A stretch of DNA of 32,000 nt from Candidatus Saccharimonadota bacterium (GTDB taxonomy: Bacteria > Patescibacteriota > Saccharimonadia > Saccharimonadales > Saccharimonadaceae): positions 330,001-362,000 of the forward strand of contig JBAQRV010000001.1 of the NCBI GenBank assembly GCA_049296095.1, read 5' to 3'. The notes beneath the pieces were generated by a model. The model saw only the letters and a list, made by a program, of their open reading frames with translations. It did no database searches and was not told where the DNA came from. Of this stretch, positions 6,062 to 22,845 are shown one piece after another; the stretch's first letter is position 1, and each line of letters begins with the position of its first letter. The position numbers and the translations under genes were made by a program.

Positions 6062-6460
6062 CTATTCTTTTGGTTTCTCTTCGAGCATTCCTAAATGAAA
6101 CTTCACTCGTTCAACAACGTCGCCAATGACAACTTGCGACTTCACGAGATAATCATTCACGCCGAGAGATTCAGCGCGTTCCTTGTCCTTTGGCTGACTG
6201 AGTGCGGTCAACATAATCACTCGAATATCCGCGGTTTCAGGGGTGTTACGAAGGATGTCAAGGACATCAAAACCGCTAATCTTTGGCATCATTGCATCGA
6301 GCAAAATGAGATCGGGTTTGAACTCCATTGCGGCCGACAGAGCTTCTTCCCCGTTGTTTACCTCTTTGCACTCAAAACCTTCGATTTCTAGACGAGATTT
6401 GTAAACGGCAGCCAGGGCTTCATCATCTTCGACGAGCAGAATTTTTTTCTTTGCGTCCAT
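6062..6460 (-). CDS. Stand-alone response regulator receiver (CheY-like REC domain only)
   Basis: 132 aa with a complete phospho-acceptor pocket: D12/D13, D55 (LILLDAMMP), T85 and K107. No output domain. Confidence 0.9.
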   Translation of the reverse strand: MDAKKKILLVEDDEALAAVYKSRLEIEGFECKEVNNGEEALSAAMEFKPDLILLDAMMPKISGFDVLDILRNTPETADIRVIMLTALSQPKDKERAESLGVNDYLVKSQVVIGDVVERVKFHLGMLEEKPKE

Positions 6461-6469
6461 ATGAGATTC

Positions 6470-6475
6470 ATTGTA
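6470..6475 (-). promoter_or_regulatory. -10 box TACAAT, 9 nt upstream of the REC ATG (leaderless-type)
   Basis: rc of 6470-6475 reads TACAAT. The spacer is gaatctcat, followed by the ATG at 6460. Confidence 0.35.
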
Positions 6476-6525
6476 CTACAAGGGGGACGCAAAGCACAAG
6501 CAGAACACTTTCAGTTGTTTTTCTT

Positions 6526-7731
6526 CTAAAGCAAAGCTTTGGCGGCGTCGAGTTGTGGGTCGCGACTCGCGTTAATATCCTCGGGAGTGAGCGGCACTTC
6601 TTTGTTTGGCATGATACCTTTTTCTGAGATATTGACACCATTTGGAGTGTACCACCTGGCGATGGTTACTTTCAGCTCAGCGCTCAGCGGCAAGCTGATG
6701 AGCTTCTGCACGCTTCCCTTACCAAAAGTCTTCTCACCCACCAACTGAGCAACGCCGTAGTCCTGGAGAGCACCAGCGACGATCTCGCTGGCACTGGCGC
6801 TGCTTGCATTGACCAAGACAACCGTCGGTATACCTTCGAGCAATGGATTACTGCCAGTCTTTAGTTCATCGATAACCGTCGAACCTTTTCGTTCACTCAC
6901 GACAACCTTTTTATTCAACCACAGGCCCGCTAATTCTTGAGCTGAGGTAACATAGCCACCGCCATTACCTCTCAGATCAAGTACGACGCCTGTCACCTTG
7001 GCATCCTTAAATTCCTGAGCAACTTCGCGTGCCTGATCACCAGTTTCGCCGTCAAAACGAGTGACGGTCATAATTCCGATACCATTTTCAATCGTAGAAT
7101 AAACACTCGGATTGTTAACTTGGGCGCGAGTAATGGTGAAGTCCTGCGTTGCTGTTCCTCGCAAAACCGTTAACTTTACGGTTGTACCAACCTCACCGCG
7201 GATCTTCGAAACGGTCTCTTCAACATTCCATCCGTCCGTGTTCTCGTCGTTCACCGCGACAATAACATCGTTCACAGTCACACCCGCCTTTTCAGCAGGA
7301 TTACCCCTCACTATTCGGATAACGGTAGGAACATCGTTTCGAAGCCCAACTTCAATACCGACACCGCCGCCAATATTACCCGTCAGACTATTATCAAACT
7401 CGGTCGTTTGCTGGGTATTCATATATACCGTGTACTCGTCACCTAATGCCTCGACAAGCCCCCTATTGGCACCCTCGATCAATGCCGTGTCATCAATAGT
7501 CCCGTCATAGTTAGCCTTGAGTGCCTGGTAGGTTGCTTGAACTGAAGAAAGATCGAGCGTTCCAGTGTATACTTTTGCTCCGAATAACGGCGCGACTGCC
7601 CCAAAGATCTGCGTATTAAAGGTTCCGGCGATATACCCAAGACCAGCAATAAACACAAATGCCACCACCATAATACTCACAGGTATACGGCGCGGCGCTT
7701 GTTGTCGGCGCGACTTTGAATGCTCAGTCAT
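6526..7731 (-). CDS. S41 family C-terminal processing peptidase (Ctp/Prc-like) with PDZ domain
   Basis: N-terminal TM anchor, PDZ domain (RGNPAEKAGVTVNDVIVAVN), and S41 motifs (LDLRGNGGGY, ASASEIVAGALQD, TFGKGSVQ). The start is placed at the ATG at 7731 because GGAGGGAG lies 6 nt upstream. The ORF-track start at 7773 is an upstream extension. Confidence 0.9.
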   Translation of the reverse strand: MTEHSKSRRQQAPRRIPVSIMVVAFVFIAGLGYIAGTFNTQIFGAVAPLFGAKVYTGTLDLSSVQATYQALKANYDGTIDDTALIEGANRGLVEALGDEYTVYMNTQQTTEFDNSLTGNIGGGVGIEVGLRNDVPTVIRIVRGNPAEKAGVTVNDVIVAVNDENTDGWNVEETVSKIRGEVGTTVKLTVLRGTATQDFTITRAQVNNPSVYSTIENGIGIMTVTRFDGETGDQAREVAQEFKDAKVTGVVLDLRGNGGGYVTSAQELAGLWLNKKVVVSERKGSTVIDELKTGSNPLLEGIPTVVLVNASSASASEIVAGALQDYGVAQLVGEKTFGKGSVQKLISLPLSAELKVTIARWYTPNGVNISEKGIMPNKEVPLTPEDINASRDPQLDAAKALL

Positions 7732-7774
7732 GAATGGCTCCCTCCGAAAGAAACTAGTAAAATATGCTCTCATA

Positions 7775-7780
7775 ATTATA
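7775..7780 (-). promoter_or_regulatory. -10 box TATAAT for ctp (about 37-nt leader with strong SD)
   Basis: rc of 7775-7780 reads TATAAT. It partly overlaps the foot of the 7778-7805 hairpin. Confidence 0.35.
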
Positions 7781-7805
7781 CCGCACCCTGAGGCGGGTGC
7801 GGTAT
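7778..7805 (-). terminator. Strong hairpin after the PcsB-like gene (terminator or RNA-stability element, weak U-tract)
   Basis: 11-bp perfect stem ATACCGCACCC / GGGTGCGGTAT with a 6-nt loop, 27 nt downstream of the stop at 7832. The minus-strand tail is AAUUAUG, which is not a classic U-run. Confidence 0.5.
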
Positions 7806-7831
7806 AAAACTCATGGTTTTAGTTGTAAAGT

Positions 7832-9013
7832 TTACTGACCAATGTAGATGTAGTGATCGAATGCATTCTCAGACAAGGTCATCTCGCTGTACATGCCATA
7901 CCCTTGACCGTAATCATAGTTATATTGGCTCACCGTTACCATACCGTTTGCTGCGCCTTCAACCCAAGCAACGTGTCCGTAGCCTTGACCAGCCTTGGCA
8001 GGATCCATCACAGCGATCGAACCAGCACGTGGCGCTCCTTCAACGTACCCAGCATTCTTAGCGTTCTGCGTGAAGTTTACGGCATTACCCCAACTATAGT
8101 AACGGCCAGTCACCTTAGCGATCTTCCAAGCAGCGTAGCTAGCACATTGACGGCAGCCATAGCCGCGTCCATCGCCACCGTTACCGTCGGCACCACCAGT
8201 CGAGAGATATCCCCACATTGGACAGTTAGTACTATTCCAAGGATACGCTGCGAGAGATCCAGCCGCGACAAGTGTGTAGCCCCCGTTGTTGTTATAACGA
8301 GCGTTAATAGCTGCCTGAGTCGCCTTTGCCTCGGCAATTTGCTGAGCACTGCTTGCAATCAAGCCTTGATAGGTCGATTCATCATTTCGAGTTCGACTCA
8401 ATAGCCCTGCCTGTTCGCTTTCCTTGGCAGCCAAGCTATCACGAGCGCTCTTTTGCTCATTCAACACCTTCTCAACAGCAACTTTCTTTTCATCAAGTTC
8501 TAGCTTCAATTGCTTCACTGTTTTAATAGTGCTGCTGAGTTGATCACGAACAGAGTTGCGGTATTCCTGCTTGTTAAGAAAGTCGGTGATGTTATCACTA
8601 CTGGCAAGCATCTCAATTGGAGAGACATTTCCATCAACATACAGGTCAGCAATTGTTGTCCCGAGGCCGTCCTGATTGTCCTTAATCGCCTTCTCTGTCT
8701 CGGTAATTTCAATCACTAACTTATCGTACTGCGTTTGATTCAAGTCAATCTGCGCCTGGAGAGCGTTTTTTTCATTGGTAATTTGAGCGAGGGCATTGGA
8801 AAGTGTCGCTGCTTCAGCGTTCAGACGGTTAGCCTCAGCCTGGTAGCGAGCCATATCAGCCTGCAGAACGGCAATCTTGTCATCATAAGGATCAGCTGAG
8901 GTCGGACGAGCAATATACAGGGCCGCTACAGTAATACCAACGACAATCGCCAAAGCGATTCCCCATTTAACGAAGCGAGAGAGTGAGACTGGTGTGGTGG
9001 CGCGCAGTTTCAT
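7832..9013 (-). CDS. PcsB-like peptidoglycan hydrolase: N-terminal anchor, long coiled coil, C-terminal CHAP domain
   Basis: 393 aa: TM/signal anchor, about 200 aa of heptad-rich coiled coil, then a CHAP domain with catalytic Cys (GCRQCASYAAWK) and His (GHVAWVEG). Confidence 0.85.
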   Translation of the reverse strand: MKLRATTPVSLSRFVKWGIALAIVVGITVAALYIARPTSADPYDDKIAVLQADMARYQAEANRLNAEAATLSNALAQITNEKNALQAQIDLNQTQYDKLVIEITETEKAIKDNQDGLGTTIADLYVDGNVSPIEMLASSDNITDFLNKQEYRNSVRDQLSSTIKTVKQLKLELDEKKVAVEKVLNEQKSARDSLAAKESEQAGLLSRTRNDESTYQGLIASSAQQIAEAKATQAAINARYNNNGGYTLVAAGSLAAYPWNSTNCPMWGYLSTGGADGNGGDGRGYGCRQCASYAAWKIAKVTGRYYSWGNAVNFTQNAKNAGYVEGAPRAGSIAVMDPAKAGQGYGHVAWVEGAANGMVTVSQYNYDYGQGYGMYSEMTLSENAFDHYIYIGQ

Positions 9014-9023
9014 AACTTATTCA

Positions 9024-9032
9024 ACTTTAGCA
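9024..9032 (-). promoter_or_regulatory. Extended -10 box TGCTAAAGT, 10 nt upstream of the PcsB-like ATG
   Basis: rc of 9024-9032 reads TGCTAAAGT. The spacer is tgaataagtt with no SD. Confidence 0.4.
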
Positions 9033-9048
9033 TAACCATGATCAAACG

Positions 9049-10584
9049 TCAATCAGTCGGAATAGCAGATACTTCGACGGGAATATTCGAAGAATTAGAA
9101 GCACCATTCCCCAGCTGACCCCCTGTGCCAAGCCCCCAGCAATATGCTTGCCCACCCGCGATCGCACAAGTTGTATTATTGCCAGCAGACATAGCAGAGA
9201 CAGTTTTCCCGCTTAACACTCCAGCGGTCGATACCGCAACTGGTACATTTGAAGAGGTCCCGGCATTACCTAACTGCCCACTCGATCCACTACCCCAACA
9301 AAAGGCTTGGCCATCTGCAATAGCACACGTGTGACTCGATCCACTAGTGATTGCGGTCACTGTCTTGCCAGAAAGTACGCCAGCTGTCGAAACAGCCACA
9401 TAAGAGGTCGAGGAGGCACTCACACCTTGCCCTAGTTGCCCACTCGTTCCGCTTCCAGCACAATATACTTGGCTATCAGCTATGACACATGTAAATCCGG
9501 TACCTAACGAGATACCCGTTATTGATTTTCCGGCCAAAACCCCCGAGCCTGACACGAGGACCGGGGAGGTTGATGACGATGTACTCCCGACTCCATACTG
9601 ACCCAAGGAATTAGTTCCCCAACAGTATGCTCCACTATCAGCAATGGCACAGGTGTGGTTATTGCCGCCATTAATGGCTGTTACTGTTTTTCCGGCCAAT
9701 GCGCCATCAGCTGTCACTGCAACCGGTATATTCGAGCTTGTCGTGCTACTATTTCCTAACCGACCACCTGTATTACTTCCCCAGCAAAAGGCTTGGCCAT
9801 CTGCAACTGCACAACTGTGAGCGTCGCCAGCACCAACCGCAGTGACTGTTTTTCCTGCCAATACCCCCGATATAGAAACGGCTACAGGAGAATACGAATG
9901 ACTTGAGCTAGCATTACCAAGCCTTCCGTTTGTATTATTTCCCCAGCAAAAGGCTTGGCCATTTGCGACTGCACAAATATGTTCAAGTCCTCTTGAGATG
10001 GCTGAGATTGATTTGCCCGATAATACACCGGTCGTTACCGTAGCGACAGGTATATTAGACGAAGTGGGCGTCCCCCCATTACCGAGTGCGTACGAGGCTC
10101 CCCAACAATAAGCCTTACCTGCAACAACACCACAGGACACAAACTGTGTGCTCGCGATAGCACTCCACACCGTTCCTGTTTCATGCTCACTACAAACCCC
10201 GGCAGTGACAGCTTTGGCACTACTATCAATGTGATATGCCAAAGTATTCAGTCGTGTCGATGTCGCAGATAAGCAATAGCTATTTGTCTCGTTCGTGTAA
10301 GTATATTGGTAGGTCGTACCATCACTCGCCTTAAGGTTGGCTGTGGCTAAATCTACTGGATAGTGTTCACTCCCGCTATCAGTTTTTGCAACCTCAAGCT
10401 GGTTGGCTGCCGAACGCAGATCAGACTGTAGTACTGACTCAGCGGCGCGTTGTTGTATCCCATTAAACGCGACGAGTGATAGCGCAGCTAAGATCCCAAT
10501 AACAACGATAACGATCAAGAGCTCAACAATCGTAAAACCCCTTCGTAAATGTCGATGCGTGTTACCTATTGCCCGTTTCGTCAT
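9049..10584 (-). CDS. Type IV pilin-like protein fused to a seven-repeat RCC1-like beta-propeller
   Basis: Prepilin class III signal (MTKRAIGNTHRHLRRG|FTIVELLIVIVVIGILAALSL, with Glu at +5) and a pilin-like head with a Cys104/Cys131 pair. Seven repeats of about 54 aa follow, each with a C(W/A)G...G(Q/R)LG motif (C160, 213, 267, 321, 375, 429, 482). Confidence 0.88.
   Translation of the reverse strand: MTKRAIGNTHRHLRRGFTIVELLIVIVVIGILAALSLVAFNGIQQRAAESVLQSDLRSAANQLEVAKTDSGSEHYPVDLATANLKASDGTTYQYTYTNETNSYCLSATSTRLNTLAYHIDSSAKAVTAGVCSEHETGTVWSAIASTQFVSCGVVAGKAYCWGASYALGNGGTPTSSNIPVATVTTGVLSGKSISAISRGLEHICAVANGQAFCWGNNTNGRLGNASSSHSYSPVAVSISGVLAGKTVTAVGAGDAHSCAVADGQAFCWGSNTGGRLGNSSTTSSNIPVAVTADGALAGKTVTAINGGNNHTCAIADSGAYCWGTNSLGQYGVGSTSSSTSPVLVSGSGVLAGKSITGISLGTGFTCVIADSQVYCAGSGTSGQLGQGVSASSTSYVAVSTAGVLSGKTVTAITSGSSHTCAIADGQAFCWGSGSSGQLGNAGTSSNVPVAVSTAGVLSGKTVSAMSAGNNTTCAIAGGQAYCWGLGTGGQLGNGASNSSNIPVEVSAIPTD
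9052..10167 (-). repeat. Seven tandem intragenic repeats of about 162 nt (RCC1-like blades)
   Basis: The CWG codons recur every 159-162 nt. An identical 16-nt core, caaaaggcttggccat, occurs at 9299-9314, 9785-9800 and 9947-9962, with offsets of 486 and 162 nt. Confidence 0.8.
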
Positions 10585-10622
10585 GCGATGTCTGACCGTG
10601 TCCTGTACTAGTTCCGTTATGT

Positions 10623-11609
10623 TTATAGCTTGAGGTAGCGACGGGTTGCCATTAATGACGATACAATGCCGATAAATGCCCCGATAAGGATCATTCCAAG
10701 AAGGACGAATCCAGCGTAGTATGTGATGATATCAAGCGTCGGCTGGACCGTAATTCCCTGTTGCGTCAGGCCTGGAGCCGCAAAGTACAAGACAGCATAC
10801 CCCATCGCACTTGCGATCAGGGCAGCAAAGAAGCCATACACGATCGCCTCGACGACGAATGGACCTCGTATAAATGAACGTTCGGCACCAATTAGTTTCA
10901 TCATCTGAATTTCTTCACGGCGATTAAAGATAGCCATGCGGATCGTGTTAAAGATGATCAGCGTCGAAATCAGCACGAAAATCACACTGGCGCCAATCCC
11001 GACTTTCTGAGCAAAATCAATCGCTTGAGCAATTGTCTCGATAGTCGCCTTCTTGGTACCCGCAAATGACGGTGGACGATTTGGGTCGAGCCGTTCTTTT
11101 GCGTATTCATTATCGGTTACAAAGGTTGCCAATTCACTCGTATTATTGATATCGGCCACCTTGATATTTAGTGTCCATGGGAATTTATTCGTTGCTTCTT
11201 TAATAGCGTCTAGGGCATCATTATCTTCCTTGTTCTGTTGAACAAAGCTGTCACGTGCATCCTGTGGCGATATTGTCGTCACACCAATAACTGACGGCAG
11301 ATCGTTGAGATCAGCTGCAACTTTCGTCACCTCTTCATTCGTTGTTTCGGTCTTTAGATAAATCGACATACTAATGTTATCTTGGAGGTTTGTTAGGGTA
11401 TCAACCAAGATATTACGCGCAGATACGCTGGTAAAGACAATAAATAGTGTGATCGTCATGACGGCCGTTGCAGCAATTGTTAGCCAGGCGTTACGGGTGA
11501 AATTATTGATACCGTAGCGACACATGCGCATAAATGTCGTCCATTGGCGGTGGTGACGCTTTTGTTGTGCAAAGGTCTTTGAGTCGAGTTTTTTCTTACT
11601 TTTTGCCAT
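10623..11609 (-). CDS. ftsX: Cell division ABC transporter permease FtsX
   Basis: 328 aa with a basic N-terminus, TM1, a large extracytoplasmic loop and three C-terminal TM helices. TAATG overlap with the ftsE stop. Confidence 0.9.
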   Translation of the reverse strand: MAKSKKKLDSKTFAQQKRHHRQWTTFMRMCRYGINNFTRNAWLTIAATAVMTITLFIVFTSVSARNILVDTLTNLQDNISMSIYLKTETTNEEVTKVAADLNDLPSVIGVTTISPQDARDSFVQQNKEDNDALDAIKEATNKFPWTLNIKVADINNTSELATFVTDNEYAKERLDPNRPPSFAGTKKATIETIAQAIDFAQKVGIGASVIFVLISTLIIFNTIRMAIFNRREEIQMMKLIGAERSFIRGPFVVEAIVYGFFAALIASAMGYAVLYFAAPGLTQQGITVQPTLDIITYYAGFVLLGMILIGAFIGIVSSLMATRRYLKL

Positions 11610-12292
11610 TATTGTCGATAACTTCCTTCAGCTTGGTCGCCGGTAATTTTACCGCCTTCGATCGTGATCACCCGTCGCTTCAATTTATTAACAATTTCAG
11701 CGTTGTGAGTTGTGAGCAGAACGGTAGTGCCGTATTTATTGATCTTTTCAAGCAGTCGAACGATGTCCCAGCTGTGTTTTGGATCGAGGTTTCCGGTTGG
11801 CTCATCAGCAATGAGGATCTTTGGTTGTCGAACAACTGCACGCGCAATCGCTACCCGTTGTCGCTCTCCGCCAGAGAGCTGGTGTGGGAATTGCTTTTCC
11901 TTACCGGTCAATCCAACCAGGTCGATAACCTTTGGAACTGTATTTTTGATTTCTCGGCCAGTCATACCGGCAATCTCGAGAGCAAAGGCAATATTTTCAA
12001 AGACGGTGCGTTGCGGCAAGAGTTTGAAATCTTGAAAGACCACACCAATTTTACGGCGAAGCATCGGGATCTGAGAATCCTTCAAAGTATCATAGTCAAT
12101 CCCACCGACAACAATCTTGCCACTGGTCGGTTTTTCTTCACGAGTTAAGAGTTTGAGAAGGGTTGATTTTCCGGCACCACTGGCACCAACAATAATCACG
12201 AATTCACGTGGCTCAATAAAGACACTCAGACGGCTGAGTGCTGGTGTACTATCTTTACCGTACGTTTTTGTTACCCTATCTAACAGAATCAT
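11609..12292 (-). CDS. ftsE: Cell division ATP-binding protein FtsE
   Basis: 227 aa with Walker A (GASGAGKST), ABC signature (LSGGERQR) and Walker B (ILIADEPT). Paired with ftsX. Confidence 0.92.
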   Translation of the reverse strand: MILLDRVTKTYGKDSTPALSRLSVFIEPREFVIIVGASGAGKSTLLKLLTREEKPTSGKIVVGGIDYDTLKDSQIPMLRRKIGVVFQDFKLLPQRTVFENIAFALEIAGMTGREIKNTVPKVIDLVGLTGKEKQFPHQLSGGERQRVAIARAVVRQPKILIADEPTGNLDPKHSWDIVRLLEKINKYGTTVLLTTHNAEIVNKLKRRVITIEGGKITGDQAEGSYRQ

Positions 12293-12302
12293 TACTAGAC
12301 GT

Positions 12303-12311
12303 ATTATAGCA
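12303..12311 (-). promoter_or_regulatory. Extended -10 box TGCTATAAT, 10 nt upstream of the ftsE ATG (leaderless-type)
   Basis: rc of 12303-12311 reads TGCTATAAT. The spacer is acgtctagta with no SD. Confidence 0.45.
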
Positions 12312-12334
12312 TAAAGGGAATCAAAAAAAGTACC

Positions 12335-13417
12335 CTAGGACTTCTCTGGCGCTTCCAAAAATGCCTCCATAAACCCATCGAGATCACCATCCAAAACACC
12401 TTGAGCATTATTCGTCTCATGCTTCGTCCGTGCATCCTTCACTAAAGTGTACGGATGGAGGACGTAGTTTCGGATCTGACTTCCCCAGTTGGCTGACTCG
12501 CCTGCTTGTAGTTCGGTAATCGAACTGACGTGTTGTTCCATTTGAAGTTGCGCGAGTTTTGAGCGCAATAATTTCATGGCAGTTTCTTTATTCTGCAGCT
12601 GCGAGCGTTCATTCTGAATCGCCACGACAATGCCGGTCGGAATATGAGTAATGCGAACCGCGCTATCGGTCGTATTGACTGATTGACCACCATGGCCGCC
12701 AGCGCGGTACACATCAATCTTGAGATCTTTGTCGTCAATCTTCAGTTCATCCGGCGCATCAATCTGCGGTAGCACCTCCACTAGTGCGAAACTGGTTTGA
12801 CGAAGATTATCACTGTTGTACGGACTGAGACGAACGAGACGATGTACACCATGCTCACTTCTCAATTTGCCGTAGGCAAAACCACCGATAATCTCAATCA
12901 CACTCGACTTTATACCTGCCTCCTCACCCTGTGATCGCTCAATCACTGTCGCAGACATTCCTGACCGCTCAGCCCAACGAAGATACATCCGTTCAAGCAT
13001 TTCTGTCCAATCCTGGGCATCAGTTCCACCAGCTCCAGCACTTAAACGAAGAATCGCATTATGGTCATCAAACTCACCATCAAATAATAGGTCTTTACGA
13101 AGTCGTTGGAACTCTTTTTCCAGTGCAATAATCTGACCTTCGAATTCACCGAGCAAGCTATCATCATCGAGATCCATCAGTTCAGTCATATCGCTCACTT
13201 GAGCCCGTAGGGTGAGCCAAGGATCGACGACGTTCTTTAGAGCCGCTAGTTGTTTACTTTTTGCCTGAGCAACGGAAGGATTATTCCAAATTTCAGATGT
13301 GGCCATTACCTGCTCGAGTGCATCAATCTCGGCCTGTTTATCGGTAATATGGAGTCGTTCTAGGGCTGCTTCAACTTCAGGACGCAGCTCATTCAGTCGT
13401 TTTATCAGGGGTTGCAT
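12335..13417 (-). CDS. prfB: Peptide chain release factor 2
   Basis: GGQ motif (GGHGGQSVN), an RF2-type recognition loop (LSPYNSDNLRQTSF), and collinearity with E. coli RF2. The frame is continuous with no +1 frameshift site. The start is placed at the ATG at 13417 (MQPLIKRL), which removes the overlap with murD. Confidence 0.93.
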   Translation of the reverse strand: MQPLIKRLNELRPEVEAALERLHITDKQAEIDALEQVMATSEIWNNPSVAQAKSKQLAALKNVVDPWLTLRAQVSDMTELMDLDDDSLLGEFEGQIIALEKEFQRLRKDLLFDGEFDDHNAILRLSAGAGGTDAQDWTEMLERMYLRWAERSGMSATVIERSQGEEAGIKSSVIEIIGGFAYGKLRSEHGVHRLVRLSPYNSDNLRQTSFALVEVLPQIDAPDELKIDDKDLKIDVYRAGGHGGQSVNTTDSAVRITHIPTGIVVAIQNERSQLQNKETAMKLLRSKLAQLQMEQHVSSITELQAGESANWGSQIRNYVLHPYTLVKDARTKHETNNAQGVLDGDLDGFMEAFLEAPEKS

Positions 13418-13424
13418 AGTCTCT

Positions 13425-13430
13425 ACTATA
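13425..13430 (-). promoter_or_regulatory. -10 box TATAGT, 7 nt upstream of the prfB ATG (leaderless-type)
   Basis: rc of 13425-13430 reads TATAGT. The spacer is agagact, followed by the ATG at 13417. Confidence 0.35.
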
Positions 13431-13442
13431 CAGGAAAGTGCC

Positions 13443-14723
13443 TTATAGTGCGTTGACCGCGGCGATAAACTGCTCACCTCGATCGACATAATTCTTGAAC
13501 ATACCAAAACTTGCCGCCGCTGGACTCAGCAGTACTGCTGCGCCAGGCTGCGCCAGCTCGTGGGCTCGACGCACGAACGCCTCTGCTCCCCCGTCAATGG
13601 TCTCAAAATCTTCGAATTCTACCGCTCGAAGTGCTTCAGCAATACGCGGCGCTTCATCTCCCACCAAGATAGCCTGCACATCATGCAGCTTCATCTCTCT
13701 CGCTAATTCACTGAAATCGGATCCTTTTGATGAACCGCCTAGAATAATTATTTTAGGGCGATCAAAAGCTCGCAGTGCAGCGATTGCCGAACCTGGTGTA
13801 GTTGCGATGCTGTCATCATAGTAATCAACACCATCTACAGTCCGAACAAAAGACAATCGATGTGCCAAGCCTTTAAAATTAGTAAGCCCTGTCTCAATAA
13901 CCTGTGGGTCTTTCGTATACTGCCAGATCGCGTCAATCGCTGCTGTAGCATTATCAACGTTATGCGCACCAGCAATCTTTAAAGCATCAACTGAACACAA
14001 TTCTTGTTCATTATAGAAAAACTTTCCCTCAAAAACATGTGCGCTATTCTGCCCCGGATAGGCGACTTTCTTTGCTGATGACAGATCAGCGATCTGCCGT
14101 GAATACTCGTTGTGGGCATTAAATATGAGTAGGTCGTCAGGAGATTGAAAGCGTGCAATATTGCCTTTCGCCTCGATATACTCCGACATATCTGCATGGA
14201 CATCGAGGTGCTCTTGTTCAATAAAGAGCACAACCGCTGTCTTCGGCGAACGCTCAATATCCCATAGTTGAAAACTCGAAAGTTCATATACTACGATGTC
14301 ATTCGGTTGAATCTCGCCAAGGATATCCAGTGACGGTTGTCCAATATTCCCGACCAACCACACCTTTCGCCCATCCGCCTCTAGTATTGAGCTAATCAAA
14401 CTTGAGGTTGTCCCCTTACCCTTAGAGCCAGTGACACCGATAATATCAGCTGGGCATTTTGCAAAGAATTCATTCGTCGCCGACCAAATCTTTCCATCCG
14501 TCGTGATCTTGTGCGGAGCAAGCCCGGCGGTACGAATCACCAGATCGAACCCATTCAGCTGCTCAAATGCATCCGGTGCCAATAGTGTTGGCACTCCCTC
14601 TGGAAGGGGTCGATCTGGAATATCTTTCTGATCAACAATCGTTATCTGATTGTCAGGATCTTGCGACCAGTAGGCATAGTTGGCCTCACCCTCAACCCCG
14701 TACCCAGCAATCGCAATCTTCAT
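13443..14723 (-). CDS. murD: UDP-N-acetylmuramoylalanine--D-glutamate ligase
   Basis: 426 aa with an N-terminal Rossmann-like segment (KIAIAGYGVEG) and the Mur ligase P-loop (GVTGSKGKGTT), collinear with MurD. It is not located within a dcw cluster here. Confidence 0.9.
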   Translation of the reverse strand: MKIAIAGYGVEGEANYAYWSQDPDNQITIVDQKDIPDRPLPEGVPTLLAPDAFEQLNGFDLVIRTAGLAPHKITTDGKIWSATNEFFAKCPADIIGVTGSKGKGTTSSLISSILEADGRKVWLVGNIGQPSLDILGEIQPNDIVVYELSSFQLWDIERSPKTAVVLFIEQEHLDVHADMSEYIEAKGNIARFQSPDDLLIFNAHNEYSRQIADLSSAKKVAYPGQNSAHVFEGKFFYNEQELCSVDALKIAGAHNVDNATAAIDAIWQYTKDPQVIETGLTNFKGLAHRLSFVRTVDGVDYYDDSIATTPGSAIAALRAFDRPKIIILGGSSKGSDFSELAREMKLHDVQAILVGDEAPRIAEALRAVEFEDFETIDGGAEAFVRRAHELAQPGAAVLLSPAAASFGMFKNYVDRGEQFIAAVNAL

Positions 14724-14732
14724 ATGCTTATT

Positions 14733-16022
14733 TTACTCGGATTTATCAAATAATGGCGCAATTTTGTCGTTTAGTTCAACCAGCTCTTCCTTGTCGCCAC
14801 TACTCACCGCGGCAAGTACCCAGGTATTGGCATCGACAAAGCTCTGTGCGGTCGCCATAATCTTCTCGCGGGTGACGCGACGGATCATATCGGGTACCTT
14901 GTCATAATCCTTGATAAAGTCATCAGCGAAATAACGATTAGTATAAAACCCGCTGATCTGCGAAACCGTCTGTGCGCCCATCTGATAACGCCCAAGACCG
15001 AATGACTTGGCAGCATCAATCTCTTCGTCTGTGAGCTTACCGTCTAGGACGGCCTTGATTTCTTTGGCAATGATGTCAAATAAAGCAGGTGCGGTGTCAT
15101 GATTCACCTGTCCAGAGATGTCCCAGGCACTATCGTAGAACCCAGCACCAGTGTAAGCACCAACGTGATACGCCAGCCCTTTCGAACGTGCTTGCCCATA
15201 GATACGAGAATTAGCCGTCCCCGTCAGAATATGGTTCAAACTATGCATTGCATCGAGCTCTTCATCTGACAACTCACGCGGCAGACTCATCGTCCAGCCG
15301 AAGGTGAGGTTCGATGCATCCTTGCGGCGAATCACCGCAGGGCCTGCACTGGCAAGTTCGTCACGTGGCACCTCAAAGCGCTCACCTTCTGGAAGTTCAA
15401 ACGCCTCCATGAGACGAATAATTTCGCTCTTTCGTCCCCGAAGCTTACCGGCAATCACAAAACGCATATTACGCGTCGTGTGCGTCCGTCGATGATGCTC
15501 ACGAATGTCCGCCAACGTGACGTTCGAAATCGTACTGAGTGACTGCCGATAGGTCAAAACGTCCTCACCGAGCAATTGTTGAACACGTGGCCACAAAATC
15601 CGATGATGATCATTCAAATAGTTAGTCAGCTCACCCCGCACGTTGCCCTTTTCGGCCTCGAGCTCAGTCTCGTTAAACTTCGGCTGACAAATACTCAGCT
15701 TTTGGAGTTCCAAAATACGATCCCATTCAAAATCAGCACAGTCTGCTTCATATACCATTGAAAGATCGGAGGTATAAGCATTGTGATAGGCCCCGTTCTT
15801 CGTAAATTCTGATTCAAAAGCATGTTCTGATTTGAATCGAGCATTTGCCCCAAAAGCCATATGTTCCATAATATGGGCAACTTGTTCGATATCTTTTGAT
15901 TTGACGTAGCGATTACCAGCGCGAAATTGGAACTGCATGCTCATCACGGTAGCACCCGGAACATTAATCAGCAGGCCTTTGGCGCCATTTTTCAGCCGTA
16001 CTTCTTCAACAGTATGATTCAT
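14733..16022 (-). CDS. M16 family (pitrilysin/insulinase-like) zinc peptidase
   Basis: 429 aa with the inverted zinc motif HxxEH (HIMEH) near the N-terminus and two-domain M16 length. Confidence 0.85.
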   Translation of the reverse strand: MNHTVEEVRLKNGAKGLLINVPGATVMSMQFQFRAGNRYVKSKDIEQVAHIMEHMAFGANARFKSEHAFESEFTKNGAYHNAYTSDLSMVYEADCADFEWDRILELQKLSICQPKFNETELEAEKGNVRGELTNYLNDHHRILWPRVQQLLGEDVLTYRQSLSTISNVTLADIREHHRRTHTTRNMRFVIAGKLRGRKSEIIRLMEAFELPEGERFEVPRDELASAGPAVIRRKDASNLTFGWTMSLPRELSDEELDAMHSLNHILTGTANSRIYGQARSKGLAYHVGAYTGAGFYDSAWDISGQVNHDTAPALFDIIAKEIKAVLDGKLTDEEIDAAKSFGLGRYQMGAQTVSQISGFYTNRYFADDFIKDYDKVPDMIRRVTREKIMATAQSFVDANTWVLAAVSSGDKEELVELNDKIAPLFDKSE

Positions 16023-16025
16023 AAA

Positions 16026-18647
16026 TTATCTTCGGCCAGATTTACGGTTTTGGCGCTGTCCCTTTTTCTTTTTACGAGCTTGGTTCTTTTTTTGGTTCGC
16101 TTCAGTGTGAGTACTGGCTTTTTTCACCTTAAAGTCATCGTCCCGATTGCTTTCACCGGCTGTGATCTCGTTCACGCCCTTCTCAACCGCCGCTTCAGCC
16201 AATCGAGTAAGTTCAGTTTCGTGGTCCTCACGGGCACGCACTGCTGCATCACGTGGAGTAACGTGCATGACGGCTCGAAGCACTTCGTCACGAAGTGTCG
16301 CCTGGAGACTATCGAATAGCTTTTGTGATTCGGCGCGGTACTCAACCAACGGGTCGCGCTGTCCTACGCTGCGCCAGTGAATACCGTCACGCAGGTGTTG
16401 CATGTTCTCGAGGTGTTGCATCCACAGCGTATCGAGGACCTGCAGGTAGGCTTCACGTTCGACTTTTCGCATCACTTCACTATCGAGTTCTTTCTCTTTG
16501 AGCTTGTAGAGCCCCTCTACCTCTTTGAGTGCCAGTTCAAAACGGGCCTTGTCATTCTTTTCGGCACCAATCGCCTCGATTTGCTTGTCGTCTAGCGGGA
16601 AAATTGCTTCAAATTCTTGACCAAATAGCCGATTATTTTTAGCTGGAAGAACCGTCAACTCACGTACTTTTGCCTCGATCAGACGATCAATTTCAGACCT
16701 GATGTCAGCCCCTTCGAGGATCTTACGACGAATCGTATAGACCACACGACGATGTCGGTTGATGACGTTGTCATACTGGACGACATTTTTACGGTTGTCA
16801 AAGTTATAGCCCTCAACTCGCTTTTGCGCAGCTTCCAACGTCTTGCTGACCATTGGGTGCTGCAGTGGCATATCGTCGTTCAAGCCAATCCGCTCCATCA
16901 AAGTCGCAATACGATCACCCTGGAAGATACGTAGGAGGTCATCCTCAGTCGATACGTAGAACTGAGTCACGCCAGGGTCACCCTGACGACCACCACGACC
17001 ACGAAGCTGATTATCAATACGACGAGACTCGTGTCGCTCTGAACCGATCACAACCAATCCACCCAGCTCGACGACACCTTCACCCAACTTAATGTCAGTT
17101 CCACGTCCAGCAATGTTAGTTGCTAGCGTGATTGCACCCTTTTCACCTGCTTTTTCAATAATCGCAGCTTCACGTTCGTTATTCTTGGCGTTCAAGATTT
17201 CATAAGGAATATGCTCTTTATCGAGCCAGTCAGCAATCAACTCATTCTTGGCAATCGAGGCTGAACCGACCAGTACTGGACGACCCTGCACATGATAGGC
17301 TTGAATGGCATCGGCAATCGCCTTTAGTTTTGCCTTTTCGGTTCGGAAAATCAGATCTTCTTTGTCCTCACGGATGGTTGGGCGGTTTGGCGGTACCTGA
17401 ACAACATCCAGCTTATAGATCTGCTGGAACTCTTCTGCTTCAGTAAAGGCAGTACCGGTCATACCAGACAGTTTTGTGTACAAACGGAAATAGTTTTGGA
17501 AAGAAACAGTCGCTAGTGTCATGCTTTCTTGCAAGACGGGTACCGACTCTTTTGCTTCGATCGCTTGGTGGAGGCCTTCATTATAGCGGCGTCCTTGCAT
17601 CAAACGACCAGTGAATTCATCCACGATAATCACTTCGCCGTCTTTGCTCACGACGTAATCTTTATCACGACGATACAGAGTCTGTGCACGAAGTGCCTGA
17701 TCCATGTGGTAGACCGAGCGGACGTATTCAGGGCTGTAGAGATTTTTTACACCCAAGAGGCGTTGTACCTTCTCGACTCCATCATCAGTCAAGGCAACCA
17801 TTTTGCGCTTTTCATCGAGCACATAGTCACCATCGGTCAGTTTTGCGGCGATCTTAGCGAATTGAATATAGCTTTCTGGATTCTCGGCCGCTGGTGCACT
17901 AATGATCAATGGCGTTCGCGCTTCGTCAATCAAAATACTGTCTACCTCGTCGACGATCGCGTAGTGCAGGTCGCGTTGGCGAAGCAAATCGACCTCATTT
18001 ACCATGTTGTCGCGTAGATAGTCGAAACCAAACTCATTGTTTGTTCCATAGGTGATATCGGCTGCATAAGCTTCCTTACGGGTCGAAGGCCGCAAGTGGT
18101 GCATACGTGGATCATCGTGCGCTTCGTTGAGGTAGTTTTTGTCATACACAAACGATGCTTCGCTAATAATGACACCTGTTGAAAGTCCGAGGAAATCGAA
18201 CAGCTCGCCGTTCCAACCGGCATCACGCTGTGCCAAGTAGTCGTTGACGGTCACGATATGGACACCCTTACCTTCCAGCGCGTTCAAATAACTAGGCAGG
18301 GTCGCCATCAATGTCTTTCCCTCACCAGTACGTAGTTCGGCAACGTTGCCTTCGTGCAGCACCATGCCACCAATCAGCTGAACATCAAAGTGGCGCATAC
18401 CCATGATGCGGCTACTCGCCTCACGGACCAACGCAAAGGCATCTGGCAGAATAGTGTCGAGATTCTCACTCTTCTTGGCGAGGCGTTTCTTTAGAACTTC
18501 AGTCTGTTTTCGAAGCTCGGCCTTGGTCATCTTTTTGTACTTTTCCTCGAGGTCGTTAATAACGACGACCTTCTTTTGAAGGCGCTTCAGCGTCTTGACC
18601 TGCGGATCACCAAAAATCTTAGTGAGTGCGCCTTGCCTACTTATCAT
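16026..18647 (-). CDS. secA: Preprotein translocase ATPase SecA
   Basis: 873 aa with canonical SecA DEAD motor motifs (MRHFDVQLIGG, TGEGKT, DEVDSILIDEARTPLIIS, TNIAGRGTDI). The C-terminus is a poly-basic tail without the Cys/His zinc motif. Confidence 0.97.
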   Translation of the reverse strand: MISRQGALTKIFGDPQVKTLKRLQKKVVVINDLEEKYKKMTKAELRKQTEVLKKRLAKKSENLDTILPDAFALVREASSRIMGMRHFDVQLIGGMVLHEGNVAELRTGEGKTLMATLPSYLNALEGKGVHIVTVNDYLAQRDAGWNGELFDFLGLSTGVIISEASFVYDKNYLNEAHDDPRMHHLRPSTRKEAYAADITYGTNNEFGFDYLRDNMVNEVDLLRQRDLHYAIVDEVDSILIDEARTPLIISAPAAENPESYIQFAKIAAKLTDGDYVLDEKRKMVALTDDGVEKVQRLLGVKNLYSPEYVRSVYHMDQALRAQTLYRRDKDYVVSKDGEVIIVDEFTGRLMQGRRYNEGLHQAIEAKESVPVLQESMTLATVSFQNYFRLYTKLSGMTGTAFTEAEEFQQIYKLDVVQVPPNRPTIREDKEDLIFRTEKAKLKAIADAIQAYHVQGRPVLVGSASIAKNELIADWLDKEHIPYEILNAKNNEREAAIIEKAGEKGAITLATNIAGRGTDIKLGEGVVELGGLVVIGSERHESRRIDNQLRGRGGRQGDPGVTQFYVSTEDDLLRIFQGDRIATLMERIGLNDDMPLQHPMVSKTLEAAQKRVEGYNFDNRKNVVQYDNVINRHRRVVYTIRRKILEGADIRSEIDRLIEAKVRELTVLPAKNNRLFGQEFEAIFPLDDKQIEAIGAEKNDKARFELALKEVEGLYKLKEKELDSEVMRKVEREAYLQVLDTLWMQHLENMQHLRDGIHWRSVGQRDPLVEYRAESQKLFDSLQATLRDEVLRAVMHVTPRDAAVRAREDHETELTRLAEAAVEKGVNEITAGESNRDDDFKVKKASTHTEANQKKNQARKKKKGQRQNRKSGRR

Positions 18648-18694
18648 GTAACCCCGCCTTTCGGAAAATAGTTCAGTACTTTACTTTAGCTATT

Positions 18695-18723
18695 ATTATA
18701 CTGTTTAGAGGGGTTTGAAACAA
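18695..18723 (-). promoter_or_regulatory. Candidate secA promoter (TTGTTT-17 nt-TATAAT)
   Basis: rc of 18718-18723 reads TTGTTT and rc of 18695-18700 reads TATAAT. The leader is about 40 nt with a weak GGCGGGG SD. Confidence 0.35.
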
Positions 18724-18724
18724 G

Positions 18725-19078
18725 CTATTTTCGGCGGCCATACAGTAATCGGCGGTTACCGACATGTGCCATTGTCGCCTGTTTGTATTTACGCAATTGA
18801 GCAAGCAATTTTGCCTCGACGATATCAATCGCTGCTAACATGTTTACGGTCGAATCTTTTGCGGTTAATGTTTTATCTGGCACATTTAAGATCACTTCGG
18901 CTTCATATTTGTTGCCGTGGTCGCGATTGACGAGCTTCAATTTCACATCGGCAGTCACGCTTTTACGTGCGTGGCGCGGCAGATAGCGATCGAGTCTGGC
19001 TATCTTGCGAGTGACATACTTTAAGGTTGTTTGGTCAGCGGTATATCTTACCCCTGTGATGTCGACTGATGCTATCAT
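18725..19078 (-). CDS. hpf: Ribosome hibernation promoting factor / RaiA family (short form)
   Basis: 117 aa with the sigma54-modulation/S30EA fold pattern (ITGVRYTADQTTLKYVTRKIARL...YEAEVILNVP...MLAAIDIVEAKL). GGAGGG SD 5 nt upstream. Located upstream of secA, as in Firmicutes. Confidence 0.85.
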   Translation of the reverse strand: MIASVDITGVRYTADQTTLKYVTRKIARLDRYLPRHARKSVTADVKLKLVNRDHGNKYEAEVILNVPDKTLTAKDSTVNMLAAIDIVEAKLLAQLRKYKQATMAHVGNRRLLYGRRK

Positions 19079-20803: not shown

Positions 20804-22162
20804 TTACTCTGTTCGTAGTGCTTCAATTGGATCAAGCTTAGCTGCTTTTCTGGCTGGGAAATAGCCGGCTAACATCGCAATTAGCATCAAAACTATGATC
20901 AATATAATAATCGGGATTGGCTGGAAGATGAGTAAGTAGTTACCCTCGCCGAGCGTCAGTAGATCGGTAATAACGGGATTCAATGCCAACCCAGCGATAA
21001 CCGCAATAATTGCCCCAATCACCCCGCCAAGGAAGCCAATCCAAGCCGCTTCAAACTGGAACAACCGACTGACATGACGACCACGCATACCGAGAGCCTT
21101 CATTAATCCAATCTCACGAGTTCGCTCCAATACAGAGATGTACTGCGTGTTAATAATGCCAAACACACTAGTAATCAACGCCAAGATTCCAAAACCAATC
21201 ACCACGCCCTGTAAAGTATTGACGATCGTAAACAACAAGCCTTGAAGGTCTTTGGCTGTTTGCACACCGTACCCTTCGGCCACTAAAGACTCTTTCACCT
21301 TGGCTGGATCAATGCCTTCTTTCACACTGGCAGTAGCTATGGTGTACTTTTGGTAGCGTGGCGTGCCGGCTGTACTGAACTCAGACAACTCTTTAGCAGT
21401 CGCATCGCTGACCTGCACGTTGGTTGCTGCGGTTAAAGCGGTTGCCGATTTGCCAACAACAGCAACGACTTTCAACTCAGTATTCATTAACTGCGGAGCG
21501 CTTAGTTGCGCAATCGCCTCAGGCCCAGCTGCAAGAGCTGCTTGAATCTGCTCTTGCGTCACATTTGGTGACCGTTCAAGGTGTAGGCTCACCGTTTTAC
21601 CGATCGCATCCTGAGCTGAGGCAAACCCTAGCAAATCAACGTAGGTCTCGGGAATTGCAATCTCATCATCTTGAATAGTTGAACGAAGCGGAGGCAAAGC
21701 GCCAGCCGTCACCGTCTGCGTCACCCCAGCATCATACTGCGCAACCTCAACCGTGTACTTTTTAGCGTCTGAACGTGTTATGTACTGAGCGTTGATGACA
21801 TAGGCAGGATAAATAGTCTGAATGTCGTCACGCGCCGCAATCTTAGCGATATCATCTTGAGTGAGGAGTGCTATAGTCGGACCACCCGAACCCTGACTGA
21901 CCAATGTAACATCTGGGTTATACTCTTGAGGACCAGTCTGCCCACCTTCGAATAGGCTTTTATCCTTAGCAATGGCCAGAACCTGCGGGTCAATATTTGA
22001 AGTCAACAGCGTATCAGCATATTGCCGTGCACCTTCTCCTGCTGCAATCGCAATCGTCAACGTGAAGGCACCCACAGCAATCGCCAAACTCGTTAGAATC
22101 GTGCGCGCCTTGGCATTCTTCAAGCTTCGCCCAGCACGGCGAATAATATCGGTTGTTTTCAT
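20804..22162 (-). CDS. ABC transporter permease, MacB/FtsX-like (4 TM with large extracytoplasmic domain)
   Basis: 452 aa: TM1, an extracytoplasmic domain of about 260 aa, then three C-terminal TM helices with the FtsX-type motif (LERTREIGLMKALG). TAATG overlap with the ATPase gene. Confidence 0.85.
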   Translation of the reverse strand: MKTTDIIRRAGRSLKNAKARTILTSLAIAVGAFTLTIAIAAGEGARQYADTLLTSNIDPQVLAIAKDKSLFEGGQTGPQEYNPDVTLVSQGSGGPTIALLTQDDIAKIAARDDIQTIYPAYVINAQYITRSDAKKYTVEVAQYDAGVTQTVTAGALPPLRSTIQDDEIAIPETYVDLLGFASAQDAIGKTVSLHLERSPNVTQEQIQAALAAGPEAIAQLSAPQLMNTELKVVAVVGKSATALTAATNVQVSDATAKELSEFSTAGTPRYQKYTIATASVKEGIDPAKVKESLVAEGYGVQTAKDLQGLLFTIVNTLQGVVIGFGILALITSVFGIINTQYISVLERTREIGLMKALGMRGRHVSRLFQFEAAWIGFLGGVIGAIIAVIAGLALNPVITDLLTLGEGNYLLIFQPIPIIILIIVLMLIAMLAGYFPARKAAKLDPIEALRTE

Positions 22163-22845
22163 TATTTCTTACCCCCGGTAATACGTTCAATCCGTCCGTC
22201 TTTGATATAAATCCTCATGTCACATTTGGCTGCGAGCTCCTCATCATGTGTCACAATCACCAACGTACTGCCACCCTTCTTATTCAAGCCAAACAGCAAC
22301 CTCTCGATTGATGCCCCAGTCTGCGTATCCAAGTTACCCGTCGGCTCATCGGCAAAGATAATCCGCGGGTTATTCACAATTGCCCGAGCAATCGCCAATC
22401 GCTGCTTCTGTCCACCGGACAGATTGCGGGCCTTTTGTTTCTCTTTGTCATTCAAGCCAACCACCCGCAACGCCTCACGAACACGCTTGCGCCGCGTTCC
22501 CGCAGACAAGCTGGCAATTTCTAGTGGCAGCGCGACGTTTTCAAACGATGTCTCATTCGCCTGCACGAAAAACGCCTGGAAAATAAACCCTATCTTTTCA
22601 GAACGAAATTTATCAACTGCTTTTGACTTTAATTTAAGAATATCGACACCATCAATCACTACTTGACCAACTTCCGGTCGATCAAGCCCACTCATGGCAT
22701 GCATTAAGGTAGATTTTCCTGAACCAGATTTTCCGACGATCGCCACACTGGCGCCGTCAGGAATCGTAAAACTCACGCGGTCAAGCGCCCGAAATGCGCT
22801 GGCCTTTTTCCCATAGGTCTTGGTAATATTTTTAATCTCAATCAT
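22162..22845 (-). CDS. ABC transporter ATP-binding protein (MacB/LolD-like)
   Basis: 227 aa with Walker A (GKSGSGKST), signature (LSGGQKQR) and Walker B (IIFADEPT). Confidence 0.92.
   Translation of the reverse strand: MIEIKNITKTYGKKASAFRALDRVSFTIPDGASVAIVGKSGSGKSTLMHAMSGLDRPEVGQVVIDGVDILKLKSKAVDKFRSEKIGFIFQAFFVQANETSFENVALPLEIASLSAGTRRKRVREALRVVGLNDKEKQKARNLSGGQKQRLAIARAIVNNPRIIFADEPTGNLDTQTGASIERLLFGLNKKGGSTLVIVTHDEELAAKCDMRIYIKDGRIERITGGKK

Follow-up and report, generated by a model that had tools for sequence, protein, structure and literature searches.

The 32,000-nucleotide (nt) stretch analysed here, referred to as the window, is part of a Saccharibacteria metagenome-assembled genome (MAG; GCA_049296095.1, contig JBAQRV010000001.1, positions 330,001 to 362,000). 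It carries the cell-division genes ftsE and ftsX, followed by a gene for a type IV pilin fused to an RCC1 β-propeller (pilin-RCC1) and a gene for a PcsB-like peptidoglycan hydrolase with a coiled coil and a CHAP domain. The hydrolase gene follows ftsX directly in nearly all related loci with readable sequence, and pilin-RCC1 is found at this junction in the window's species only. The gene is very probably a species-specific insertion of an ordinary adhesin-type gene, and no new component of the division machinery. Coordinates count from the first nucleotide of the window, and the features of the ftsEX region all lie on the minus strand.

Re-reading of the region gives the order that a preliminary description of this DNA had reported, namely ftsE, ftsX, a 38-nt gap, pilin-RCC1, a 35-nt gap, the coiled-coil/CHAP gene, a hairpin and ctp, and the domain calls of that description hold up in profile searches. 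An identical pilin protein in the same gene neighbourhood recurs on 4 assembled contigs (50 kb to 0.7 Mb), which differ in source; one of them is a 242-kb contig of the Saccharibacteria MAG GCA_049286885.1. The arrangement is therefore genuine and no assembly chimera.

The pilin gene at the ftsX/CHAP junction

Related loci were collected with FtsX as the query. Scanning the GTDB species, each represented by a single genome, gave 47 Saccharibacteria loci, with FtsX identities of 35-76%, and a metagenome scan added 80 loci, roughly 64 of which have enough downstream sequence. Downstream sequence is readable in 46 of the species loci, and in 45 of these the CHAP gene lies directly 3´ of ftsX. The informative metagenome contigs, roughly 64 in number, show the same order without exception, the gap ranging from -93 to +219 nt. 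The closest relatives, L052 (FtsX 85% identical) and L053 (80%), have no insert and a 41-nt ftsX/CHAP junction. In a neighbour-joining tree of six concatenated conserved proteins, the window groups with L003 and L002, both of which are also insert-free. Pilin-RCC1 was found at the junction in none of the about 110 relatives surveyed. Both scans, closest relatives included, thus bear out the first of the two readings in the preliminary description, by which a conserved division cluster received a lineage-specific insertion. The question it raised of whether pilin-RCC1 always lies between ftsX and the CHAP gene is answered in the negative, the gene being absent or located elsewhere in relatives with an otherwise identical cluster. 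At L087:1318-1982, an ftsX gene 61% identical to that of the window is followed by an unknown 117-amino-acid (aa) open reading frame (ORF) and not by a CHAP gene, which may mark a third insertion at the junction; this contig ends 664 nt past ftsX.

The junction belongs to a longer conserved array, hpf (S30AE)-secA-M16 peptidase-murD-prfB-ftsE-ftsX-CHAP-ctp-response regulator, which spans 6062-19078 in the window and is kept across about 47 species (loci L002-L048). We take this array to resemble the hpf-secA-prfB...ftsEX...ctpB neighbourhood of Bacillus subtilis. Two slots within it, murD/prfB and prfB/ftsE, vary in gene content from species to species among loci L002-L047. They hold NUDIX genes, a Clp_N-domain protein, an Asp/Glu racemase on the opposite strand and unknown ORFs of 300-440 aa, and no pilins occur among the genes in these slots of the relatives. 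Both slots are empty in the window, where prfB and ftsE are spaced by 42 nt.

One border of the insertion falls at a promoter-like element of the hydrolase gene. This element (9024-9052 as a whole), recognised by a pattern scan and by its conservation in relatives, consists of the -35 hexamer TTGACG (9047-9052), a 17-nt spacer and the extended -10 sequence TGCTAAAGT (9024-9032), followed by 10 nt to the ATG. The stop codon of the pilin gene (TGA, 9049-9051) is embedded in the -35 hexamer. By a strict pattern, at least 72 of 111 distinct related loci have this element, equally spaced from the conserved start ATGAAACTGCG, and several of the loci missed are one base off; the chance expectation, roughly estimated from the degeneracy of the pattern, is less than 1 locus. 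At the junction of L052, a single nucleotide parts the stop codon of ftsX from the -35 hexamer (TAA-C-TTGACT). At that of the window, TAA is followed by the 38 nt (10585-10622), which mark the left edge of the inserted segment, and by the pilin ORF ending with TGA inside TTGACG. Comparison of the two places the insertion precisely in the spacer that follows the ftsX stop and precedes the -35 box, and the hydrolase promoter has stayed intact. No repeats or remnants of mobile elements are visible by eye at the borders, where no repeat search was run.

The pilin gene itself lacks comparable signals. Neither the 38-nt gap nor the 3´ end of ftsX contains a convincing promoter for it, and no well-placed Shine-Dalgarno sequence is recognisable in the gap. 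A terminator scan found no terminator-like site in the 38-nt gap or in the 35-nt gap behind the pilin gene (9014-9048). The preliminary description had called the gaps too short for terminators, which hints at one transcript for all the genes. This is only half right. The lack of terminators stands, but the 35-nt gap is no empty spacer, being filled by the conserved promoter of the hydrolase gene.

The layout of the hydrolase promoter, TGnTAnnnT about 10 nt before the ATG, also occurs 5´ of ftsE and of many other genes in the window. The promoter-like extended -10 of ftsE, TGCTATAAT (12303-12311), lies 10 nt 5´ of the ftsE ATG and is probably the start of an ftsE-ftsX(-pilin) transcript. At ftsE, the CHAP gene and the genes for the response regulator, SerRS and RRF, among others, an extended -10 of this form precedes the ATG by 7-11 nt, and no Shine-Dalgarno sequence is present. 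For the hydrolase gene, the constant spacing of 10 nt and the missing Shine-Dalgarno sequence point to an mRNA with no leader or hardly any, and the recurring layout suggests that leaderless mRNAs may be widespread in the window's lineage. This conserved and probably leaderless promoter would serve annotators as a landmark and would also be of use for genetics in cultivable strains such as TM7i. One clade (L036, L040, L042, L045, L114, L116, L123, L125, L126 and L130) has no intergenic promoter at this site; its ftsX and CHAP genes overlap (ATGA), and its hydrolase is, as read from the sequence, translationally coupled to ftsX and has no promoter of its own.

The pilin-RCC1 protein and its homologues

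The pilin-RCC1 gene (9049-10584) encodes a 511-aa PilX2-like protein that belongs to the modular type IV pilins as Raynaud et al. (PMC8179133) use the term. Its N terminus carries a canonical class III prepilin signal, MTKRAIGNTHRHLRRG|FTIVELLIVIVVIGILAA, with cleavage at G|FTIVE after a 16-residue leader (10537-10584). This region matches PF07963 (N_methyl; 27.5 bits, cut-off 21.2) and TIGR02532 (26.7 bits, cut-off 16.3), and its sequence also matches those of solved pilins, such as geopilin and PilA. The leader is followed by the α1 helix and a small β-sheet (residues 17-135; 10180-10536) and by a seven-bladed RCC1 propeller (residues about 140-505; 9070-10167), in which RCC1 is matched in six stretches and WD40_RLD with 201.7 bits. 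An AlphaFold2 model based on 27 full-length homologues is confident throughout (mean predicted local distance difference test score 88.9), with a helix at residues 19-70, a β-sheet at 90-128 and seven four-stranded blades at 140-504. The modelled propeller superimposes on UVR8 and other RCC1-like domains with Foldseek template modelling (TM) scores of 0.87-0.91; a fold search of the PDB with the model added just generic RCC1 propellers (UVR8, HERC2 and RCC1).

The protein contains 16 cysteines, which comprise the pair C104/C131 in the pilin module and one pair in each blade. The seven blade pairs (residues 151-482) are invariant across the 27 homologues, with a spacing of 9 residues (CxxxxxxxxCWG), which suggests one disulfide per blade. 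Eukaryotic RCC1 domains are not known to carry such per-blade Cys pairs. The pattern fits an extracellular, disulfide-stabilised protein. The pilin gene also stands apart in composition. Its GC content at third codon positions (GC3) is 0.396, the lowest among the window genes with a family assignment and below that of its neighbours (about 0.48), and its codon-usage fit is the second worst in the window. Both values are consistent with an accessory or acquired gene.

The closest known counterpart is PilX2 of Nanosynbacter lyticus TM7x, a minor pilin of the thin pilus T4P-2, which is described as having a heptabladed β-propeller with RCC1 repeats, is required for efficient host binding and has been proposed as the tip adhesin (PMC11623550). 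Like the window protein, PilX2 combines a pilin helix and a small globular module with a seven-bladed RCC1 propeller, and it comes from the same phylum; the likeness is one of published architecture. They differ in two respects. The pilX2 gene neighbours pilA2 among pilus genes, whereas the window gene is an orphan in the ftsEX-hydrolase cluster, and the 32 kb contain no further pilus gene. No predicted PilD signal was reported for PilX2 (PMC11623550), whereas the window protein has the canonical G|FTIVE class III signal. By this comparison, the window protein is probably a PilX2-like minor pilin and putative tip adhesin of a type IV pilus. Modular type IV pilins in general comprise more than 1,200 proteins with 264 architectures, bacteria of the candidate phyla radiation (CPR) included (PMC8179133). 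The window protein falls in the same class as PilB (vWA module) and PilC (lectin module) of Streptococcus sanguinis (PMC8179133, PMC9934059); the RCC1 propeller, with its conserved Cys pair in each blade, differs from the modules named in the main text of PMC8179133, which does not include RCC1. PilY1/PilC of Gram-negative type IV pili likewise has a seven-bladed β-propeller, which serves in adhesion at the pilus tip. PilY1 is no pilin, and its propeller belongs to another family (IPR008707), whereas the propeller of the window protein is fused straight to a pilin module. A preprint on a CPR 'novel pilus' was dropped as a parallel, as it concerns a chaperone-usher-like system.

Type IV pili are reported to be near-universal in Saccharibacteria (PMC11623550, PMC12592800). 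Within the window, a six-frame scan for prepilin motifs found the signal of pilin-RCC1 alone, and Pfam scans of the other large ORFs found housekeeping genes only and no pilus machinery.

Full-length prepilin-RCC1 proteins of about 500 aa are numerous in a database of 5.8 billion proteins, in which the best match besides the window protein itself is at most 55% identical. The genomic contexts of four full-length homologues (48-55% identity) all differ, and none is tied to ftsEX. One lies before leuS (P0048), one beside the gene for a short-chain dehydrogenase (SDR; P0116), one between rpsJ and rplC in a ribosomal-protein region (P0070) and one after smpB, as part of a tandem pair (P0018). The copies elsewhere have their own TGnTAnnnT promoters. 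The loci listed for the homologues at rpsJ/rplC and after smpB are L132:5001-6554 and L133:5001-8264. The homologue between rpsJ and rplC is accompanied by PGA_cap and VanY genes and breaks the ribosomal gene order, and the two genes of the tandem pair after smpB have near-identical promoters. By their sequence contexts, pilin-RCC1 genes are orphan accessory genes that are spread among housekeeping genes and are mobile in Saccharibacteria. Their landing in varied housekeeping operons fits a rapid turnover of the surface proteins with which Saccharibacteria bind their hosts.

A second pilin gene occurs at the same junction in one relative. L016:11035-12228 encodes a 397-aa prepilin whose pilin module is just 40% identical to that of the window protein and whose C-terminal part is not RCC1. 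It has an apparent promoter-like element and a Shine-Dalgarno sequence of its own. The tree neighbours of L016, L018 and L026, are insert-free, as are those of the window; the two insertions, lying in separate clades, are therefore independent. An ancestral pilin at the junction, which L016 could have pointed to, was rejected on the strength of the tree, the differing C-terminal modules and the 40% identity of the pilin modules. Apart from the copy in the window, 4 prepilin ORFs occur in 1.36 Mb of related loci, which gives a chance expectation of 0.32 at one named junction among about 110 loci and a probability of at least one occurrence of about 0.28. By this value, the recurrence at the junction is not significant. 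The C-terminal part of the L016 pilin has FGE/SUMF1-like motifs by eye (RGGSW and GFR) and no Pfam match, and the insert is flanked by a promoter-like copy on each side.

Origin and role of the inserted pilin gene

A simple course of events very probably accounts for the arrangement. As comparison with relatives shows, a copy of the pilin gene was inserted whole, in the window's species alone, into the short spacer between the ftsX stop and the hydrolase -35 box, leaving the hpf-secA-M16-murD-prfB-ftsE-ftsX-(CHAP hydrolase)-ctp array and the hydrolase promoter untouched. Presumably, FtsEX and the PcsB-like hydrolase function no differently from those of the ~110 surveyed relatives without the pilin. 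Since no promoter goes with the inserted copy, its transcription would most likely come from read-through from the ftsE promoter. After cleavage by the prepilin peptidase, the protein would join type IV pili encoded elsewhere in the genome, as its family membership suggests. Such an insertion is of little import for cell-division biology, as the FtsEX-hydrolase module of Saccharibacteria runs without a pilin in essentially all lineages.

Three points weigh against so plain an account. The tight gaps and the shared strand indicate that the pilin gene is probably co-transcribed with ftsEX, which makes its co-expression with division genes likely, although this is not conserved. The unrelated modular pilin at the L016 junction could hint at a favoured position, though its occurrence is within chance. 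The likeness to PilX2, as far as published comparison goes, is one of architecture only, and the window protein differs from PilX2 in its prepilin signal.

The first two of these points are what a regulatory co-option would build on. Selection would then have favoured the position because it couples adhesin synthesis to the division operon and so readies new cells for host attachment, while the protein itself would have no physical contact with FtsEX or the hydrolase. The window copy indeed lacks the promoter that its homologues carry and begins 38 nt behind ftsX with no terminator in between, and a different modular pilin arrived independently at the same junction in L016. We nevertheless consider this unlikely, because the position is occupied in only 2 of about 111 lineages, which is compatible with random scatter, because the L016 pilin seems to have its own promoter and Shine-Dalgarno sequence and so shows no read-through design, and because the other pilin-RCC1 copies stand behind unrelated genes. 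In a stronger form, the ftsEX transcription unit of Saccharibacteria would repeatedly have captured modular adhesin pilins, independently in the window and in L016. This is decidedly unlikely. If true, the tip adhesin would be made at division, the daughter cells of an obligate epibiont would be ready to attach, and the programmes of division and host attachment would share a regulatory link with no physical connection to FtsEX/PcsB.

The composition of the gene raises the possibility of a silent passenger, that is, a recent duplicate or horizontal acquisition that is poorly expressed or decaying and has no present function. The missing promoter, the lack of a well-placed ribosome-binding site, the atypical codon usage with low GC3 and the lack of any close homologue sampled anywhere all agree with it. 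The ORF is intact over 511 codons, though, and all family-invariant residues are kept, including the seven Cys pairs and G|FTIVE; the model is confident throughout, and the arrangement is identical on 4 contigs. A passenger without function is accordingly very unlikely.

The second reading of the preliminary description, in which pilin-RCC1 is a wall-spanning, pseudopilin-like component that aids the FtsEX-activated hydrolase, for example by making way for a pilus through the wall or by acting where the cell touches its host, fares still worse. It rested on one-strand adjacency with short gaps, to which the pilin-type gene at the L016 junction can now be added. That pilin bears a different C-terminal module, however, and about 110 relatives lack the gene here in an otherwise identical cluster, while its homologues occupy four unrelated sites. 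The conserved promoter of the hydrolase gene further means that the three units are no single designed operon, and the same architecture has already been assigned to host binding in TM7x (PMC11623550). Functional coupling is thus highly improbable, and pilin-assisted wall remodelling is without comparative support. A chimeric join that brought the pilin gene into the cluster during assembly is practically negligible, given clean borders with the pilin stop codon inside a conserved -35 box and 4 contigs of differing source that share the protein and its neighbours.

The PcsB-like hydrolase and the flanking genes

FtsEX is paired with a peptidoglycan hydrolase in several bacteria, as FtsEX-PcsB in Streptococcus pneumoniae and, analogously, as FtsEX-CwlO in Bacillus and FtsEX-RipC in Mycobacterium. 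In the window, FtsE (11609-12292, 227 aa), the cell-division ABC ATPase, passes the equivalog cut-off of TIGR02673 (278.7 bits, cut-off 264.85) and also matches PF00005. The start of ftsX overlaps the ftsE stop as TAATG. FtsX (10623-11609, 328 aa), the permease-like division protein, matches PF02687 with 62.6 bits and its extracellular domain PF18075 (FtsX_ECD) with 45.9 bits, both over the cut-offs. Its scores against the NCBIfam FtsX models, 183 and 164 bits, are below the cut-offs of 225 and 255, which marks it as a divergent member of the family. By these matches, the pair is an FtsEX system, with an FtsE-type ATPase and an FtsX bearing an extracellular domain. In the literature on FtsX in Saccharibacteria, we found nothing beyond statements of gene presence and the expression of host genes.

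The hydrolase (7832-9013, 393 aa) is composed of an N-terminal membrane anchor or signal, a coiled coil and a C-terminal CHAP domain that holds the Cys and His motifs RQCASY and GHVAWV. The CHAP match is clear (3.7e-14, 53.4 bits), and the coiled-coil matches are weak (CC_PcsB, 3.7e-4; DUF7491). Against the NCBIfam models, the protein scores 41.1 bits for PcsB (NF046104, 1.2e-10; equivalog cut-off 450) and 29.1 bits for RipC (6.5e-7; equivalog cut-off 425). Residues 26-390 align with residues 13-390 of pneumococcal PcsB (4cgk) with the QC and GHVA motifs matched, though weakly (E 3.6e-5). By sequence, the protein is PcsB-like in architecture and context, whereas by curated threshold it is no PcsB ortholog and may be called an analogue or a distant relative.

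The arrangement resembles that of S. pneumoniae in that FtsE and an FtsX with an extracellular domain adjoin a secreted coiled-coil/CHAP hydrolase. It differs in the very weak sequence match of the hydrolase (E 3.6e-5; 41 bits against a cut-off of 450) and in the hydrolase gene having its own conserved promoter. The adjacency of ftsX and the hydrolase gene is kept in about 110 Saccharibacteria loci, with the genes overlapping in one clade. This class-wide adjacency, together with the end-to-end alignment with 4cgk, strengthens the premise of the preliminary description that the CHAP protein is the PcsB-like partner of FtsEX. By analogy with Streptococcus, FtsEX may activate the hydrolase, and the conserved linkage makes the coiled-coil CHAP protein a clear candidate for an FtsEX-regulated hydrolase in uncultivated Saccharibacteria epibionts. 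This linkage and the conserved hydrolase promoter seem more useful than the original idea about the pilin.

A GC-rich hairpin (7776-7807) lies 3´ of the hydrolase gene. Its folding energy is -26.7 kcal/mol (z = -6.0), and 0 of 200 shuffled sequences are equally stable. The hairpin has no T-run and is hence absent from the list of the terminator scan; it is probably a terminator or an RNA-stabilising stem. The next gene, ctp, encodes an S41 C-terminal processing protease with a PDZ domain (TIGR00225, 289.6 bits, cut-off 218.6; PF03572 is also matched). Its ORF as listed (6526-7773) begins at 7773. The ATG at 7731, residue 15 of this ORF, has GGAGGG at the right distance upstream and is, judging from the sequence, probably the true start. 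A TATAAT sequence lies just past the hairpin, within the region 7720-7773. A second ABC pair, consisting of an ATPase and a MacB/FtsX-family permease with a MacB periplasmic-core domain, is located at 20804-22845, 9 kb upstream of ftsEX.

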